Origin: Escherichia coli
GTDB lineage: Bacteria; Pseudomonadota; Gammaproteobacteria; Enterobacterales; Enterobacteriaceae
Length of the DNA: 64,000 nt
Strand: one strand, 5' to 3'
NCBI RefSeq assembly: GCF_013122565.1
Contig: NZ_CP053258.1
The translations under genes and the position numbers were made by a program. Positions 3,538 to 51,302 of this stretch are shown here, in pieces. Within the stretch, counting starts at the first letter, position 1; the number at the start of each line of letters is the position of its first letter. The notes below the pieces were generated by a model. It was not told the DNA's origin and did no database searches. It worked only from the letters and a program-made list of their open reading frames with translations.

Positions 3538-3751
3538 CGCGCACCTCGTGGCTGATTATGGACGGCGTTATTGGCAAAGTGGAACAAGACTCACTCCCGG
3601 GTCAGCAAACTCGAAAAATTGACGCTCCCATTATTTGTGCTTTCGTTTTTTTCTATCCGCCAATAAACCCGTTTTTTTGTTGCTATTTAGCGCCTTTGTC
3701 TTATTGACTTACTGGTAGGCTTTGCTACCAGAAATTATCCGGGAGATGAAA
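3538..3751. promoter_or_regulatory. Divergent fliE / fliFGHI class 2 (FlhD4C2-dependent) promoter region
   Basis: 214-bp AT-rich spacer between divergent fliF (-) and fliE (+) starts; assigned from known flagellar regulon organisation, no motif explicitly matched. Confidence 0.5.
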
Positions 3752-12861: not shown

Positions 12862-12930
12862 TGTCCGCAATTTACCGGTAACCCCCAAATAACCCCTCAT
12901 TTCACCCACTAATCGTCCGATTAAAAACCC

Positions 12931-12957
12931 TGCAGAAACGGATAATCATGCCGATAA
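12931..12957 (+). promoter_or_regulatory. Putative fliA promoter element (sigma-28 -10-like GCCGATAA at 12950..12957)
   Basis: Exact GCCGATAA 26 nt upstream of the fliA GTG; the -35 match is poor, so the assignment is tentative. Confidence 0.35.
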
Positions 12958-26546: not shown

Positions 26547-26711
26547 GGTCCAGCCAGAAGAGTAAGAGAAAGCACTATTTTACGCGTTACAGCGCTGCGA
26601 CAATGGCCGGAAAAGACGCCTGGCAGGCGCTATTTCTTGCCATCTGTAGGTGTCAGAAATAGGGGGGCTGTTTTTTTGATTATCATTTTTATAACATTAA
26701 AGGGGTATTTA

Positions 26712-41243: not shown

Positions 41244-41270
41244 TAAAGTTTCCCCCCTTCTTGCCGATAA
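41244..41270 (+). promoter_or_regulatory. sigma-28 class 3 promoter of the tar-tap-cheRBYZ operon
   Basis: taaagttt-N11-gccgataa: exact match to both halves of the sigma-28 consensus with 11-nt spacer, ~30 nt upstream of tar. Confidence 0.78.
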
Positions 41271-41301
41271 CGAGATTAACTTGTTTTCAGGAAGGTGCCT
41301 T

Positions 41302-46955: not shown

Positions 46956-47600
46956 ATGATGCAACCATCAATCAAACCTGCTGACGAGCATTCAGCTGGC
47001 GATATCATTGCGCGCATCGGTAGCCTGACGCGTATGCTGCGCGACAGTTTGCGGGAACTGGGACTGGATCAGGCCATTGCCGAAGCGGCGGAAGCCATCC
47101 CCGATGCGCGCGATCGTTTGTACTATGTTGTGCAGATGACCGCCCAGGCTGCGGAGCGGGCGCTGAACAGTGTTGAGGCGTCACAACCGCATCAGGATCA
47201 AATGGAGAAATCAGCAAAAGCGTTAACCCAACGTTGGGATGACTGGTTTGCCGATCCGATTGACCTTGCCGACGCCCGTGAACTGGTAACAGATACGCGG
47301 CAATTTCTGGCAGATGTACCCGGACATACCAGCTTTACTAACGCGCAACTGCTGGAAATCATGATGGCACAGGATTTTCAGGATCTCACCGGGCAGGTTA
47401 TTAAGCGGATGATGGATGTCATTCAGGAGATCGAACGTCAGTTGCTGATGGTGTTGTTGGAAAACATCCCGGAACAGGAGTCGCGTCCAAAACGTGAAAA
47501 CCAGAGTTTGCTTAATGGACCTCAGGTCGATACCAGCAAAGCTGGTGTGGTAGCCAGTCAGGATCAGGTGGACGATTTGTTGGATAGTCTTGGATTTTGA
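46956..47600 (+). CDS. cheZ: CheY-P phosphatase CheZ
   Basis: ORF 46926..47600 trimmed to [24 protein letters not shown]... at 46956, 214 aa. Confidence 0.92.
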
Positions 47601-47618
47601 TTTGTATTGCCTGAACTT

Positions 47619-47643
47619 CGGCCTGCGCGATGATGCCAGGCCG
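47619..47643. terminator. Hairpin between convergent cheZ and the inserted nucleotidyltransferase gene
   Basis: Inverted repeat cggcctg...caggccg 19 nt after the cheZ stop; no strong T-run, so weak. Confidence 0.35.
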
Positions 47644-47687
47644 ATAGCAGGGTGGCGAGTATCGTTCAGGGAGTACGTGGAGGATGG

Positions 47688-48440
47688 TTATTTGTAGTTT
47701 GATAATTTTAGATCAGCGAAGCGTGTTTGTTGCGCCAGTAAATTTATCAACGCATTAAATTGTGAACGAGAAAATGACGATGACTGGTAGTGCAGTACAT
47801 CGTAATGATGCCAAACTTCATAACGTTTTTTCGTCAGTTCATGGTGCAAGAAATGACAGAGTTCCGGACCTAAACTCTTTACCTGCTTAGTAAAAATAGT
47901 GCGTAAAATCTTCGTTACCGAACCGCTTGGATTGGGGTTAGTATGAAGAACAAGTTCAAGATGTCTGCGATTTAAGTCGGTCAAATAATTATCTTTACTG
48001 ATAATTTTTTCACTACGTAGATCATAGAGCACGGCATCCCAACTCATTAGCGTAGTGTTTAACAGACTTGATTCATCCTCACAAAATATAAGTTTTTCCC
48101 GAAATGCCCATGTCTCATTGAGGTTCCAGATATCAAATTCGAAGTCGTGATAACGAAAACGGATCCCACCGAACTTATTAAAACGCAGTTGTTTAACGGG
48201 CAATTCAGCCAATGTCCGGAAGAGTTCCTCACGGGAGCGACCGATGACGATATCAAGGTCTGAAGAAAATCCTTCGACGCCAAACAAGCCTAAGTCACGC
48301 ACCATCCCGCCAAAAATCCAGGCCGGACAGGAACAGGCCAGAGTATCAAGTAATACTCTGGCTTTCTTATGCTCATCACTAAGCGTAAAAAAATCGGCGA
48401 TACGCTGTTCAAGCTGTTGGGTGTTTGAGACCACATTCAT
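47688..48440 (-). CDS. Pol-beta-superfamily nucleotidyltransferase (CCA/MNT/SMODS-like fold), function unknown; downstream gene of inserted operon
   Basis: ORF 47688..48440, 250 aa; nucleotidyltransferase signature ...AWIFGGMVRDLGLFGVEGFSSDLDIVIG... (hG[GS]-x9-13-DhDh) with a third acidic residue in ...HDFEFDIWNL...; start overlaps upstream gene by 32 nt; no equivalent gene between cheZ and flhB in K-12 as I recall; AT-rich. Confidence 0.7.
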   Translation of the reverse strand: MNVVSNTQQLEQRIADFFTLSDEHKKARVLLDTLACSCPAWIFGGMVRDLGLFGVEGFSSDLDIVIGRSREELFRTLAELPVKQLRFNKFGGIRFRYHDFEFDIWNLNETWAFREKLIFCEDESSLLNTTLMSWDAVLYDLRSEKIISKDNYLTDLNRRHLELVLHTNPNPSGSVTKILRTIFTKQVKSLGPELCHFLHHELTKKRYEVWHHYDVLHYQSSSFSRSQFNALINLLAQQTRFADLKLSNYK

Positions 48441-49917
48441 ACAGTGATTTTAGCTCATCGTGAAGGCGCATTAAATAACTATCCGTCATGCCTGAGATTG
48501 CGTCGGTAAGCAACTGCGCTTCTTTATAAAGAATAGGGAGTGTATTGGCGGGATCTTCAAACACACGGCGATAATTTTCAGAGATTGTCCCGTAAGCATA
48601 GCGACCAAAGGGAGTATCCGATAGGTATTCTTCACGAGAAACAAAAAGGTTATCTGCAGACGCGGACTCGCGTTCTCCGTCTCGTTCTTTCTTTGTTTTG
48701 TGTCCATGGATGCCAATCCAGAGCATATCCATCAAGTTAGTAATGTAATTAGACCCCCTAAGTTCCAGTTGCAAGACTGAACGATGAAGGTAGCCTCGTG
48801 TTCGGTCGAACATTTTCAGGGCAGTGCAGAGAGCGTGACCTTTGCTTTGCGAGATTAAATCTTTGAACGGGCAGTCACGCTGCATCAGCGTGGGTAATTG
48901 TTCGCGAAAGGCTTCAACTACGGCATTAATCAATGCACTGGTGGCATACACTCTGAACATTTGCATACTGAGTTCATTAATTTCTGCCGGTGAAAGTGCA
49001 TTTCTTTGCTCTTTCCAGGCGTCATTTTTGGCCTCTACAGCTTTAATAACATTTTCAATTACATCGTTCGACTCGGATTGTGACATCAAAAAATCACGCA
49101 AATCCTGGTATGAGGCAAATCCTTTCTTGATGGTATCTTCTGCGTCAAGCACAGAGTAGGCAATATCGTCGCAAGCTTCCATTATCCAGGTAAATGGGTG
49201 GCGGCAACCGGCATCATTACCTGGTACGCCAAGGCCCGTTTGCTGCCAGACATCCATGACAACCTCATGCTCAGAATAGAAAAAACCGTGTTTTTTCCAA
49301 TGTTTGTCCGATGAATATGAAGCTCGGGGATATTTGATCAGTGCAGCCAGCGTGGCATAGGTCAGATTCAGACCAAAGTTATCGTTAATAATTTGTAATT
49401 TGGTAACCAGGCGCAGGGTTTGTGAGTTTCCATCAAATTGCAGAAAGTCGTTATATATTTCGCTGTTTACTTCTTTATCAAGAAGGCCTGGAAGATTTTT
49501 ATTAAACCATGCGCGCATCGCTGCTTCACCTTGATGCCCAAATGGTGGATTACCGAGATCGTGTGCCAGTCCGATCGCTGCTAACAGAGCAGGAACGTCG
49601 CGTTCAACGACAATCCCCGTGGGTATTTCGCCAAAGATGTGTTCCTTCATCTCGAAAGCGAGCCTCATTCCTATTCCGCGAGCAAAGTTTGCTACTTCGT
49701 GAGAATGAGTCAGCCTCGTCCGTATACTGTCATTTTGATCTAACGGGAAAACTTGTGTTTTATCCGCCAGCCGACGAGTTGGCGCAGCAAAAAGTAATCG
49801 GTCGTAATCCCGCTCGATCTCTTGTCTTCCGCGAGCAAGGGGATGTAAAAATTCTATGCTGGTTTTTTTTAGATTATCTTTTCGACGGTTGCAGTTAAGC
49901 AATTGTTGCCATTCCAT
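48409..49917 (-). CDS. Dgt-family dNTP (dGTP) triphosphohydrolase paralogue (HD domain); upstream gene of inserted operon
   Basis: ORF 48409..49917, 502 aa; Dgt hallmark motifs: DKTQVFPLDQNDSIRTRLTHSHEV (HD histidine), GLAHDLGNPPFGHQGE (HD aspartate), FDGNSQTLRLV, HPFTWIMEACDDIAYSVLDAEDTIKKG, LTDAISGMTDSYL; RBS aagg 7-8 nt before ATG; AT-rich. Confidence 0.82.
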   Translation of the reverse strand: MEWQQLLNCNRRKDNLKKTSIEFLHPLARGRQEIERDYDRLLFAAPTRRLADKTQVFPLDQNDSIRTRLTHSHEVANFARGIGMRLAFEMKEHIFGEIPTGIVVERDVPALLAAIGLAHDLGNPPFGHQGEAAMRAWFNKNLPGLLDKEVNSEIYNDFLQFDGNSQTLRLVTKLQIINDNFGLNLTYATLAALIKYPRASYSSDKHWKKHGFFYSEHEVVMDVWQQTGLGVPGNDAGCRHPFTWIMEACDDIAYSVLDAEDTIKKGFASYQDLRDFLMSQSESNDVIENVIKAVEAKNDAWKEQRNALSPAEINELSMQMFRVYATSALINAVVEAFREQLPTLMQRDCPFKDLISQSKGHALCTALKMFDRTRGYLHRSVLQLELRGSNYITNLMDMLWIGIHGHKTKKERDGERESASADNLFVSREEYLSDTPFGRYAYGTISENYRRVFEDPANTLPILYKEAQLLTDAISGMTDSYLMRLHDELKSLYECGLKHPTA

Positions 49918-50153
49918 TTGATCGCCTTTGTAATAATTTAATTATTAGCAAACTAACAGAGAGACGGTGGGCGATTCTATAGGCTAAATGGCTAAATATC
50001 AGAACTGGAAAATGGTTCGCAAAACGTTCTGCAACTGAACCTATTTTTTGCATAAACGTCCTAAATCCCGCCTGTTTTGCCCCTTACTCAAACCATTGAA
50101 CGCTTTGCGCTCTGGCATCATTTACGCTTAATACTCTTTCCAGGATTGGCGAC

Positions 50154-51302
50154 GTGTCTGACGAGAGCGACGACAAAACAGAAGCCCCCACACCTCACCG
50201 ACTAGAAAAAGCGCGGGAAGAGGGGCAAATCCCGCGTTCCCGTGAACTGACCTCGCTGCTGATTTTGCTGGTGGGCGTGTGTGTTATCTGGTTTGGCGGT
50301 GTGTCGCTGGCCCGTAGATTGTCGGGCATGCTCTCCGCTGGGCTGCATTTTGATCACAGTATTATCAATGACCCGAATCTGATCCTCGGGCAAATTATTC
50401 TGCTGATCAGAGAAGCCATGCTGGCGCTGCTGCCGCTGATTAGCGGCGTGGTGCTGGTGGCGCTCATTTCTCCGGTCATGCTGGGAGGGCTGGTATTTAG
50501 CGGAAAATCCTTGCAGCCGAAGTTTTCCAAACTCAACCCGCTACCGGGCATAAAACGGATGTTCTCGGCACAGACTGGCGCGGAGTTGCTTAAAGCAATT
50601 TTGAAAACCATCCTGGTTGGCAGCGTGACGGGGTTTTTTCTCTGGCATCACTGGCCGCAGATGATGCGCTTAATGGCCGAGTCTCCGATTACCGCCATGG
50701 GTAATGCGATGGATTTGGTAGGGCTATGCGCACTGCTGGTGGTGCTTGGTGTCATTCCAATGGTGGGATTTGACGTCTTTTTCCAAATCTTCAGCCACCT
50801 GAAAAAGCTGCGAATGTCGCGGCAGGATATTCGTGATGAGTTCAAACAAAGCGAAGGCGACCCCCATGTTAAAGGACGGATCCGTCAGATGCAGCGAGCT
50901 GCCGCACGGCGTCGGATGATGGCCGATGTGCCGAAAGCGGATGTCATTGTCAATAACCCGACCCACTATTCGGTAGCGTTGCAGTATGACGAAAACAAAA
51001 TGAGCGCACCGAAAGTGGTCGCTAAAGGTGCAGGGCTGGTCGCGCTGCGCATTCGTGAAATTGGCGCTGAAAATAACGTCCCGACGCTTGAAGCGCCGCC
51101 GCTGGCGCGAGCGCTGTATCGACATGCGGAGATTGGTCAACAAATCCCGGGTCAACTGTACGCCGCGGTGGCGGAAGTGCTGGCCTGGGTCTGGCAACTG
51201 AAACGCTGGCGTCTGGCTGGTGGACAGCGTCCTGTACAACCTACTCATCTTCCGGTGCCGGAAGCCCTGGATTTTATTAACGAGAAACCGACCCATGAGT
51301 AA
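50154..51302 (+). CDS. flhB: Flagellar type III export apparatus protein FlhB
   Basis: ORF 50154..51302 (GTG start), 382 aa, ..SDESDDKTEAPTPHRLEKAREEGQIPRSREL...; NPTH autocleavage motif present (VIVNNPTHYSVAL). Confidence 0.92.
   Translation: MSDESDDKTEAPTPHRLEKAREEGQIPRSRELTSLLILLVGVCVIWFGGVSLARRLSGMLSAGLHFDHSIINDPNLILGQIILLIREAMLALLPLISGVVLVALISPVMLGGLVFSGKSLQPKFSKLNPLPGIKRMFSAQTGAELLKAILKTILVGSVTGFFLWHHWPQMMRLMAESPITAMGNAMDLVGLCALLVVLGVIPMVGFDVFFQIFSHLKKLRMSRQDIRDEFKQSEGDPHVKGRIRQMQRAAARRRMMADVPKADVIVNNPTHYSVALQYDENKMSAPKVVAKGAGLVALRIREIGAENNVPTLEAPPLARALYRHAEIGQQIPGQLYAAVAEVLAWVWQLKRWRLAGGQRPVQPTHLPVPEALDFINEKPTHE

Follow-up and report, generated by a model that had tools for sequence, protein, structure and literature searches.

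Clover is a two-gene anti-phage system that has been characterised in Salmonella SA20044414 and in E. coli H5, and its protection is directed mainly against T5-like phages (Yamaguchi et al., bioRxiv 2025, PMC12265719). CloB makes the inhibitory dinucleotide p3diT, which holds the effector CloA (an octamer in Salmonella) off, and the phage-driven rise of dTTP activates CloA, which leads to dGTP depletion (PMC12265719). On its own, CloA shows no activity, and its control lies with dTTP and p3diT; SpdGTPase, in contrast, is always active (PMC12265719). Besides, the loss of CloB activity is toxic (PMC12265719), as is, reportedly, the presence of CloA without CloB. The system has been characterised from plasmid-borne, arabinose-induced constructs, and the preprint makes no mention of flagella or promoters (PMC12265719). 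Nothing had been reported before on the native promoter of Clover or on the place of the system in E. coli genomes. Single-gene anti-phage dGTPases (Tal et al. 2022; dGTPase model of PADLOC; equivalog NF041026 of NCBIfam) are also related to the effector. From the regulatory point of view, the closest comparison is the divergent pair flgAMN/flgBCDEFGHIJ, in which one FlhD4C2 site activates both sigma-70 promoters, those of flgA and flgB (PMC12781870).

The window analysed here is a stretch of 64,000 nucleotides of Escherichia coli (contig NZ_CP053258.1), and the region under study is the spacer at positions 49918-50153. In this spacer, flhB (start codon GTG at 50154, plus strand) and a dNTPase gene, named here cloA (start at 49917, minus strand), diverge from each other over 236 bp. 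The original prediction, made from the sequence alone, described an inserted island with a dNTPase-based defence module, the promoter of which would share or abut the DNA of the flhB promoter. Its coordinates hold, both for the divergent starts and for the convergent end (cheZ stop at 47600, cloB at 47688, gap of 87 bp), and the defence module has turned out to be Clover. The spacer is read here as a divergent control region of composite nature, in which two independent modules stand back to back: the right 99 bp (50055-50153) would be the ordinary class 2 promoter of flhBAE, unchanged with respect to E. coli without the cassette, and the left 137 bp (49918-50054) would be Clover's own sigma-70-type promoter and leader. 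This account, with two modules, independent promoters and an old, site-faithful cassette, is considered likely. The features of the locus are collected in Table 1, which provides a map of the native control region separating the bases of flhB from those of cloA.

Table 1. Features of the cheZ-cloBA-flhB locus (positions of the window)
Feature	Position	Strand	Evidence and remarks
cheZ	46956..47600	+	ORF; cheZ annotation in homologous loci; terminal gene of the sigma-28-dependent tar-tap-cheRBYZ operon
Convergent spacer, cassette side	47615..47687		GC-rich stem-loop ~47618-47645, without U-tracts; alignment to empty sites
cloB	47688..48440	-	250-aa ORF; Pol-beta-type nucleotidyltransferase of Clover
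cloA	48409..49917	-	502-aa ORF; HD-domain dGTPase effector of Clover
cloA leader and putative sigma-70 promoter	49918..50054	-	Cassette-intrinsic; blocks conserved across genera
FlhDC-box-like second match, weak	50011..50054		19/28; probably fortuitous
FlhD4C2 box of the flhBAE class 2 promoter	50055..50097	+	AACGTCCTAAATCCCG-N11-CCTTACTCAAACCATT; 20/28 with respect to the published consensus
flhB core promoter and leader	50096..50153	+	Blocks kept in all genera of the spacer alignment
flhB, leading gene of flhBAE	50154..51302	+	ORF; annotation of homologous loci

CloA from the window aligns end to end with the eight-chain dNTP triphosphohydrolase entries PDB 9p8s-9p8v (E = 4.5e-190 for 9p8s, residues 1-495; 61% identity), which are taken to be the Salmonella CloA of Clover. 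The protein contains the HD motif at 119/120 and H128 and E131 as the H..E catalytic dyad, it matches the dGTPase model of PADLOC (5e-71) and it passes the cut-off of TIGR01353. It shares with the single-gene anti-phage dGTPases the HD-domain dGTPase effector; however, it differs from them in having an obligatory nucleotidyltransferase partner and in its score against NF041026 (182.4 bits, below the cut-off of 400). This partner, CloB, gave no matches in PADLOC, NCBIfam or the PDB sequence search, and its best family match is a marginal one to the PolyA_pol head (Pfam). Residues G44, G45, R48, D49, S60, D61, D63 and D103 are invariant in 12 homologues, and the combination of GGxxR at 44-48, S60-D61-L-D63 and D103 constitutes the signature of Pol-beta nucleotidyltransferases. 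The protein thus displays the active site described for CloB of Clover, [D/E]h[D/E]...h[D/E]h, and its D61 and D63 match the numbering of one published catalytic mutant.

The organisation of the genes is also that of Clover, in which the two genes form an operon and cloA precedes cloB and overlaps it (PMC12265719). In all the loci traced, cloB is located directly downstream of a CloA homologue and overlaps it, the overlap being of ~30-50 nt in E. coli, Enterobacter, Cronobacter, Atlantibacter, Pseudomonas and a Bradyrhizobiaceae MAG. The distant CloA partners from Pseudomonas fluorescens and from the Bradyrhizobiaceae MAG are 47% and 45% identical, respectively, and a scan of genome contigs with one CloB sequence recovered three distant loci only. 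On these sequence grounds, cloAB belongs to the Clover anti-phage systems and represents a diverged subtype. The window CloB is only 36% identical to the CloB of Atlantibacter, whose CloA is 82% identical to SeCloA.

The Clover of Atlantibacter hermannii (L015/L016:1-10831) is located in a defence island, and its neighbours there are a type I HsdR, a YgjP-like protein, a Macro-domain protein, a D12-class methyltransferase, an Ogg-like glycosylase, QueC and a nucleoside deoxyribosyltransferase-like protein. In contrast with that location, the window cassette has a fixed address in the core genome, between cheZ and flhB.

The function of cloAB in the window is taken from the literature on the published systems: CloB would make p3diT and keep CloA off, and the rise of dTTP caused by the phage would turn CloA on, with the depletion of dGTP and protection against T5-like phages as the expected outcome. 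Related to this, the original prediction had offered as a rationale that flagella are receptors for flagellotropic phages, and no link exists between this idea and the published specificity of Clover.

The boundaries of the cassette were established by alignment to empty sites from Clover-less E. coli, namely the K-12-like L001 (cheZ-flhB spacer of 201 bp) and CREC-544 (L003, 188 bp). Homology to these strains stops at 47614, 14 bp past the cheZ stop codon (left junction 47614/47615), and restarts at 50055-50060, only ~99 bp of the DNA upstream of flhB being common to both. The REP-like spacer of K-12, ~105 bp with palindromes, is absent from the Clover-bearing region. With respect to Clover-less E. 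coli, the cassette region is a replacement of this REP-like spacer and not a simple insertion. The alignment with K-12, proposed from the beginning as the way to find the insertion boundaries and a target-site duplication, has defined the former; as for the latter, no repeat is visible at the two junction sequences when inspected against the empty sites. The ORF list contains no integrase or transposase in the cassette, which is filled by the two Clover ORFs, and none of the attributes of an integrative genomic island (integrase or transposase, target-site duplication, tRNA or att site) is visible in it.

A 52-aa ORF in another frame (49895..50053, minus strand), which runs over the cloA start, was rejected because the T-run indel present in E. 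coli carriers would frameshift it. The proposal that the K-12 spacer is a leftover of the cassette promoter was also rejected, the similarity being by eye no better than random. An Rfam scan of 47000-50600 at a permissive threshold yielded only two snoRNA-like chance matches.

The Clover cassette was found in 106 of 5,426 complete E. coli genomes (2%), always in the chromosome and always at the cheZ-flhB site; among the matches listed for 5,386 E. coli genomes, this site contains only Clover or the short REP spacer. The context of the CloB family was traced in ten enterobacterial lineages besides E. coli, and the same site and orientation are found in eight of them: Enterobacter hormaechei, Cronobacter dublinensis, Pseudescherichia, Pseudenterobacter timonensis, and the lineages of loci L017, L020, L030 and L031. 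In the remaining two, the cassette adjoins cheZ only (L014) or is located elsewhere (Atlantibacter). The recurrence of the cheZ/cloAB/flhB arrangement in E. coli and in eight other lineages means that it is not a chance juxtaposition.

Identity to the window proteins in these lineages is 65-80% for CloA, 43-71% for CloB, 76-88% for FlhB, 85-92% for CheZ and 94-98% for CheY. The GC content of the cassette is 6-15 points under that of its flanks in every host (43.8% against 53-55% in the E. coli window), and the identity matrices of CloA and CloB disagree with those of FlhB and CheZ. Taking into account these discordant matrices and the low GC content, vertical descent alone is not the whole story, and some exchange of alleles through the conserved flanks has probably taken place. 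Within E. coli, five diverse carriers show cassettes that are 98.1-99.3% identical, with flanks that are 97.3-99.1% identical; this equal diversity among carriers indicates that the cassette is as old as its flanks in the species. No plasmid or phage copies of the window Clover subtype were found in searches of plasmids and phages.

These data bear on the proposal of a recently inserted mobile island that disturbs the expression of flhB or the termination of cheZ. The low GC content of the cassette and its presence in just 2% of the complete genomes are what such an insertion would leave behind, and the right boundary of the cassette touches the distal arm of the FlhDC box. However, neither mobility genes nor a visible duplication at the junctions accompany it, its diversity equals that of the flanks, the address and orientation are the same in at least eight other lineages whose CloB has diverged down to 43-71% identity, mobile copies were not encountered, and the FlhDC box and core promoter of flhB are intact and at the canonical distance. 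A recent and disruptive insertion is thus considered extremely improbable, and the "inserted island" of the original prediction gives way to an old syntenic resident, both across genera and in E. coli. Judging from these comparisons, the cassette is a long-standing, site-faithful accessory resident that has been lost in most E. coli lineages. It would be an old occupant of the cheZ-flhB site in Enterobacteriaceae, now subject in E. coli to a presence/absence polymorphism in which the alternative allele carries REP-like repeats.

The traits of typical defence hotspots were used for comparison with the cheZ-flhB site. As in the core-gene-flanked defence hotspots of E. coli, a low-GC accessory cassette shows presence/absence polymorphism; unlike them, the site contains one cargo (Clover) or an empty REP spacer, the same cargo is found in several genera, and there is no integrase. 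The literature search found no mention of the cheZ-flhB site as a Clover address or as a defence hotspot, so the conserved chromosomal address appears to be unreported and is a new, although modest, observation. For a defence system, the fidelity of this Clover subtype to its site is unusual, the same core address being kept in several genera. The description of the site could be of use in studies on the native regulation of Clover, and the cheZ-flhB spacer could serve as a marker; it overturns nothing.

Several copies of the cassette are interrupted. In one Enterobacter hormaechei genome (L007:2365-5038), cloA is interrupted by a transposase of the IS3 family, an IS1 lies within the cassette of one E. 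coli carrier (NZ_CM149886.1), and cloA from Pseudenterobacter (L019) is split into two ORFs. The cassette is therefore sometimes inactivated and, CloA without CloB being reportedly toxic, the order of decay may be informative.

On the flhB side, the spacer was scanned with the FlhDC-box consensus AAYGSSNNAAATAGCG-N10-12-CGCTATTTNNSSCRTT (PMC9962212). The best box in the spacer, which is also the second best in the 64-kb window, matches at 20/28 positions (13/16 core positions), and 77.5 bp separate its centre from the flhB start codon. In all ten spacer versions compared (the window, the eight other lineages and K-12), the top-scoring box is found at 75-78 bp from flhB. The same scan in K-12 places the boxes of the class 2 genes at 75 and 79 bp (flgA/flgB) and at 76.5 bp (fliE), and the agreement with these distances (75-79 bp) makes the geometry of the flhB box that of a canonical class 2 promoter. 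In K-12, the expression of flhBAE drops from 137 to 0 when flhD or flhC is deleted (PMC4183435). The FlhDC ChIP-seq peak of K-12 flhBAE (PMC4183435), placed after calibrating the conversion of coordinates from NC_000913.2 to.3 by means of the tar sigma-28 motif, falls within the segment shared with the window, at 63.5 bp upstream of flhB.

The proximal arm of the box overlaps a -35-like TTGAAC (50096-50101), followed by a -10-like CATCAT (50116-50121) inside the conserved GGCATnAT and by the Shine-Dalgarno sequence AGGA (50142-50145). From these elements, transcription of flhB would start near 50128, leaving a leader of ~25 nt. Across 50060-50153 there is a single base of difference from K-12 and none from CREC-544. 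The transition to the K-12 allele lies within the first five bases of the distal arm, which reads AACGT (AACGC in some carriers) against AAAGC in K-12; box positions 1, 2 and 4 are alike, and the fit of the Clover-linked version to the consensus is at least equal to that of K-12. Near-identity to the Clover-less alleles, together with a distal arm that fits the consensus, indicates that the class 2 promoter of flhB is intact in the carrier. By homology to K-12, one base apart, the window flhB promoter is probably an FlhDC-dependent class 2 promoter. The suggested perturbation of flhB is contradicted by this near-identity to K-12 and full identity to another Clover-less strain, and carriage of the cassette leaves the promoter intact.

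Elsewhere in the window, FlhDC-box-like matches equal to or better than the flhB box are found at 26602-26643 and 3655-3696 (21/28 and 20/28, respectively), and the known FlhDC site of fliA is recovered at 12879 (19/28), beside the fliA sigma-28 promoter at 12931. In the Clover-bearing E. coli FDAARGOS_944, flhB is annotated as a pseudogene with an internal stop (L028:5539-6687).

The pairing site of the EHEC small RNA EsrF on the "flhB 5' UTR" has been described as AGCCUAAAUCCCGCC, at -82 to -97 (PMC8092317). This site corresponds to window positions 50057-50072 (flhB -97 to -82) and thus to the distal arm of the FlhDC box. It is located ~55-70 bp upstream of the class 2 start proposed above, so the class 2 transcript should exclude it. 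In Clover-bearing strains the first bases of the site are CGT, not AGC, and there is no co-directional upstream gene to supply a read-through transcript.

On the cloA side, the alignment of the 150 nt upstream of cloA revealed several conserved blocks on the cloA strand: a near-invariant -35-like TTGCGA (50022-50017), an A/T-rich -10-like GATATT/TATTTA (50000-49993) located 16-18 bp downstream of it, a TAGAAT/TAGAAA block in which TAGAAT (49979-49974) is an alternative -10, also chosen by the consensus scan as CTGATA/TAGAAT, and the leader block CTCTGTTAGT (49961-49952), which reads CTTTGyTAGC across lineages. The generic sigma-70 promoter scan as a whole was not above chance (3 found against 5.0 expected). 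According to the spacer alignments, the blocks upstream of cloA are conserved in seven flhB-linked lineages and in L014, and the eighth lineage, L030, has a variant of the TTGCGA block. In L014 the cassette is still next to cheZ; its other neighbour is an AraC-family gene instead of flhB. The presence of the blocks in L014, where flhB is not next door, indicates that they belong to the cassette. We infer from this conservation and from the consensus a putative sigma-70-type promoter with a leader of ~50-70 nt, which would place the start of cloA transcription near 49967-49986; the exact start sites of cloA and flhB, like the regulatory independence of the two genes, are likewise deduced.

Across genera, the -35 block keeps the same spacing from the cloA ATG (97-104 bp). 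On the other side, the linker between this block and the FlhDC box measures 23, 32, 32, 33, 35, 45 and 271 bp in seven lineages. Two fixed modules joined by a variable linker are unlike a shared, phase-dependent regulatory element. Of the proposal that the two promoters would share or abut the same DNA, the second part stands: they abut, and no DNA is shared, the flhB promoter occupying 50055-50153 and the cloA blocks lying at least 32 bp away, in cassette DNA. Since the cassette would carry its own sigma-70-type promoter and leader, cloAB is most likely transcribed independently of FlhDC and FliA. As a separate observation, the L017 spacer (472 bp; L017:3079-3550) has ~236 bp extra between the cloA promoter blocks and the FlhDC box.

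The co-regulation of cloAB with motility, also put forward in the original prediction, was analysed for both flagellar regulators. For FliA, a sigma-28 matrix was built from 26 strong sites (PMC4183435), the weakest of which scores 7.7 bits. The matrix recovers the controls in the window (tar, 30.1 bits at 41244-41271; motA, 24.0 bits; fliD, fliA and fliC, 16-22 bits), and no sigma-28 promoter of the TAAAGTTT-N11-GCCGATAA type was found in the spacer, where the best score is 1.3 bits in the window and does not exceed 7.1 bits in any genus. As these scores are below the weakest training site, the idea that cloA has a sigma-28 promoter was rejected.

For FlhD4C2, it may be proposed that cloAB is co-regulated through a bidirectional action of the flhB box, or through the adjacent second box, and that the expression of Clover tracks the motile state. 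The flgA/flgB pair gives a precedent, with which the locus shares the divergent orientation, the FlhD4C2 box in the spacer and one gene, flhB, at the canonical distance. The second FlhDC-like match (50011-50054) is beside the real flhB box and, at 19/28, it is among the top nine in the 64 kb; the background frequency of such matches is 8e-5 per position, so that chance alone would give an estimated ~0.035 of them in 140 bp. Besides, the adjacency of cloAB and flhB is conserved across genera, and this synteny could reflect a functional link and not history. On the other hand, the flgA/flgB spacer is of 154 bp, with a symmetric box at 75 and 79 bp from the two genes, whereas the spacer of the window is longer, its linker is variable, and the cloA start is located 158.5 bp from the centre of the flhB box and 115 bp from the second match. 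Neither arrangement of a class 2 operon, a box ~75-79 bp from the start or abutting the -35, is found for cloAB. The distance to the start codon is an imperfect criterion, as fliF is 137.5 bp from the best fliE/fliF box. However, linkers ranging from 23 to 271 bp do not keep helical phasing, and the same cloA promoter blocks exist in L014 without a neighbouring flhB. The second match has no counterpart at the same position in other genera and is polymorphic among the E. coli carriers (the T-run indel and an A/G change in one arm), and the ChIP study noted that the presence of an FlhDC motif is not enough to predict binding (PMC4183435). Control of cloAB by FlhD4C2 is thus regarded as unlikely.

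As far as the sequence is concerned, co-regulation with motility finds no support: a sigma-28 promoter is missing, cloA is far from the flhB box, and the second box is weak, specific to E. coli and polymorphic. A broader version of the same idea is that the Clover address has been kept across Enterobacteriaceae by functional coupling with the flagellar and chemotaxis genes, either through FlhD4C2 at the flhB box or through convergent che transcription. We consider it quite unlikely; if it were true, nucleotide-depletion immunity would be set by the motile state and che transcription may tune the CloB:CloA ratio. Transcription of cloAB from a promoter of its own remains the preferred reading.

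At the convergent end, the hairpin described as weak (47619..47643) is indeed present, as a stem-loop at ~47618-47645, and its fold is in fact strong: the folding energy of the 100-nt region is -38 kcal/mol (z -3.2) for the plus strand and -28.6 kcal/mol (z -4.7) for the minus strand. Both strands are devoid of a U-tract, so the stem-loop does not qualify as a canonical intrinsic terminator, and the terminator scan, which overall was not above chance, gave no site in the cheZ-cloB gap. In other genera, the cheZ-cloB gaps, of 24-64 bp, contain compact bidirectional terminators made of A-tract, stem and T-tract. The stem-loop, a bidirectional terminator in those genera, would separate cloB from the convergent che operon, and some read-through at the E. 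coli end is conceivable from its sequence.

Such read-through would give rise to another kind of coupling, in which the strong class 3 transcript of che runs antisense into cloB, or that of cloAB into cheZ, and the interference links the motility genes to the CloB:CloA balance. The short gap of 87 bp, the stem devoid of U-tracts, the empty terminator scan and the difference from other genera with clear intrinsic terminators are in line with it, and the toxicity of losing CloB activity (PMC12265719) implies that the balance matters. Nevertheless, the stem is thermodynamically strong on both strands, Rho-dependent termination past the stop codons is plausible, and selection would act against a toxic imbalance, whereas the arrangement has a long history in E. 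coli. K-12 offers an analogue: the REP hairpin that follows cheZ is likewise without a U-tract, yet no cheZ-flhB co-transcript has been detected by RNA-seq or RT-PCR (PMC4183435). Coupling through the convergent end is therefore held to be rather improbable, and the separation of cloB from the che operon by the stem-loop is preferred.

Finally, the cheZ-cloB gap of L030 (L030:4772-4952) is of 181 bp and contains REP-like palindromes together with a clear intrinsic terminator, which indicates that REP elements also colonise Clover-bearing versions of the locus.
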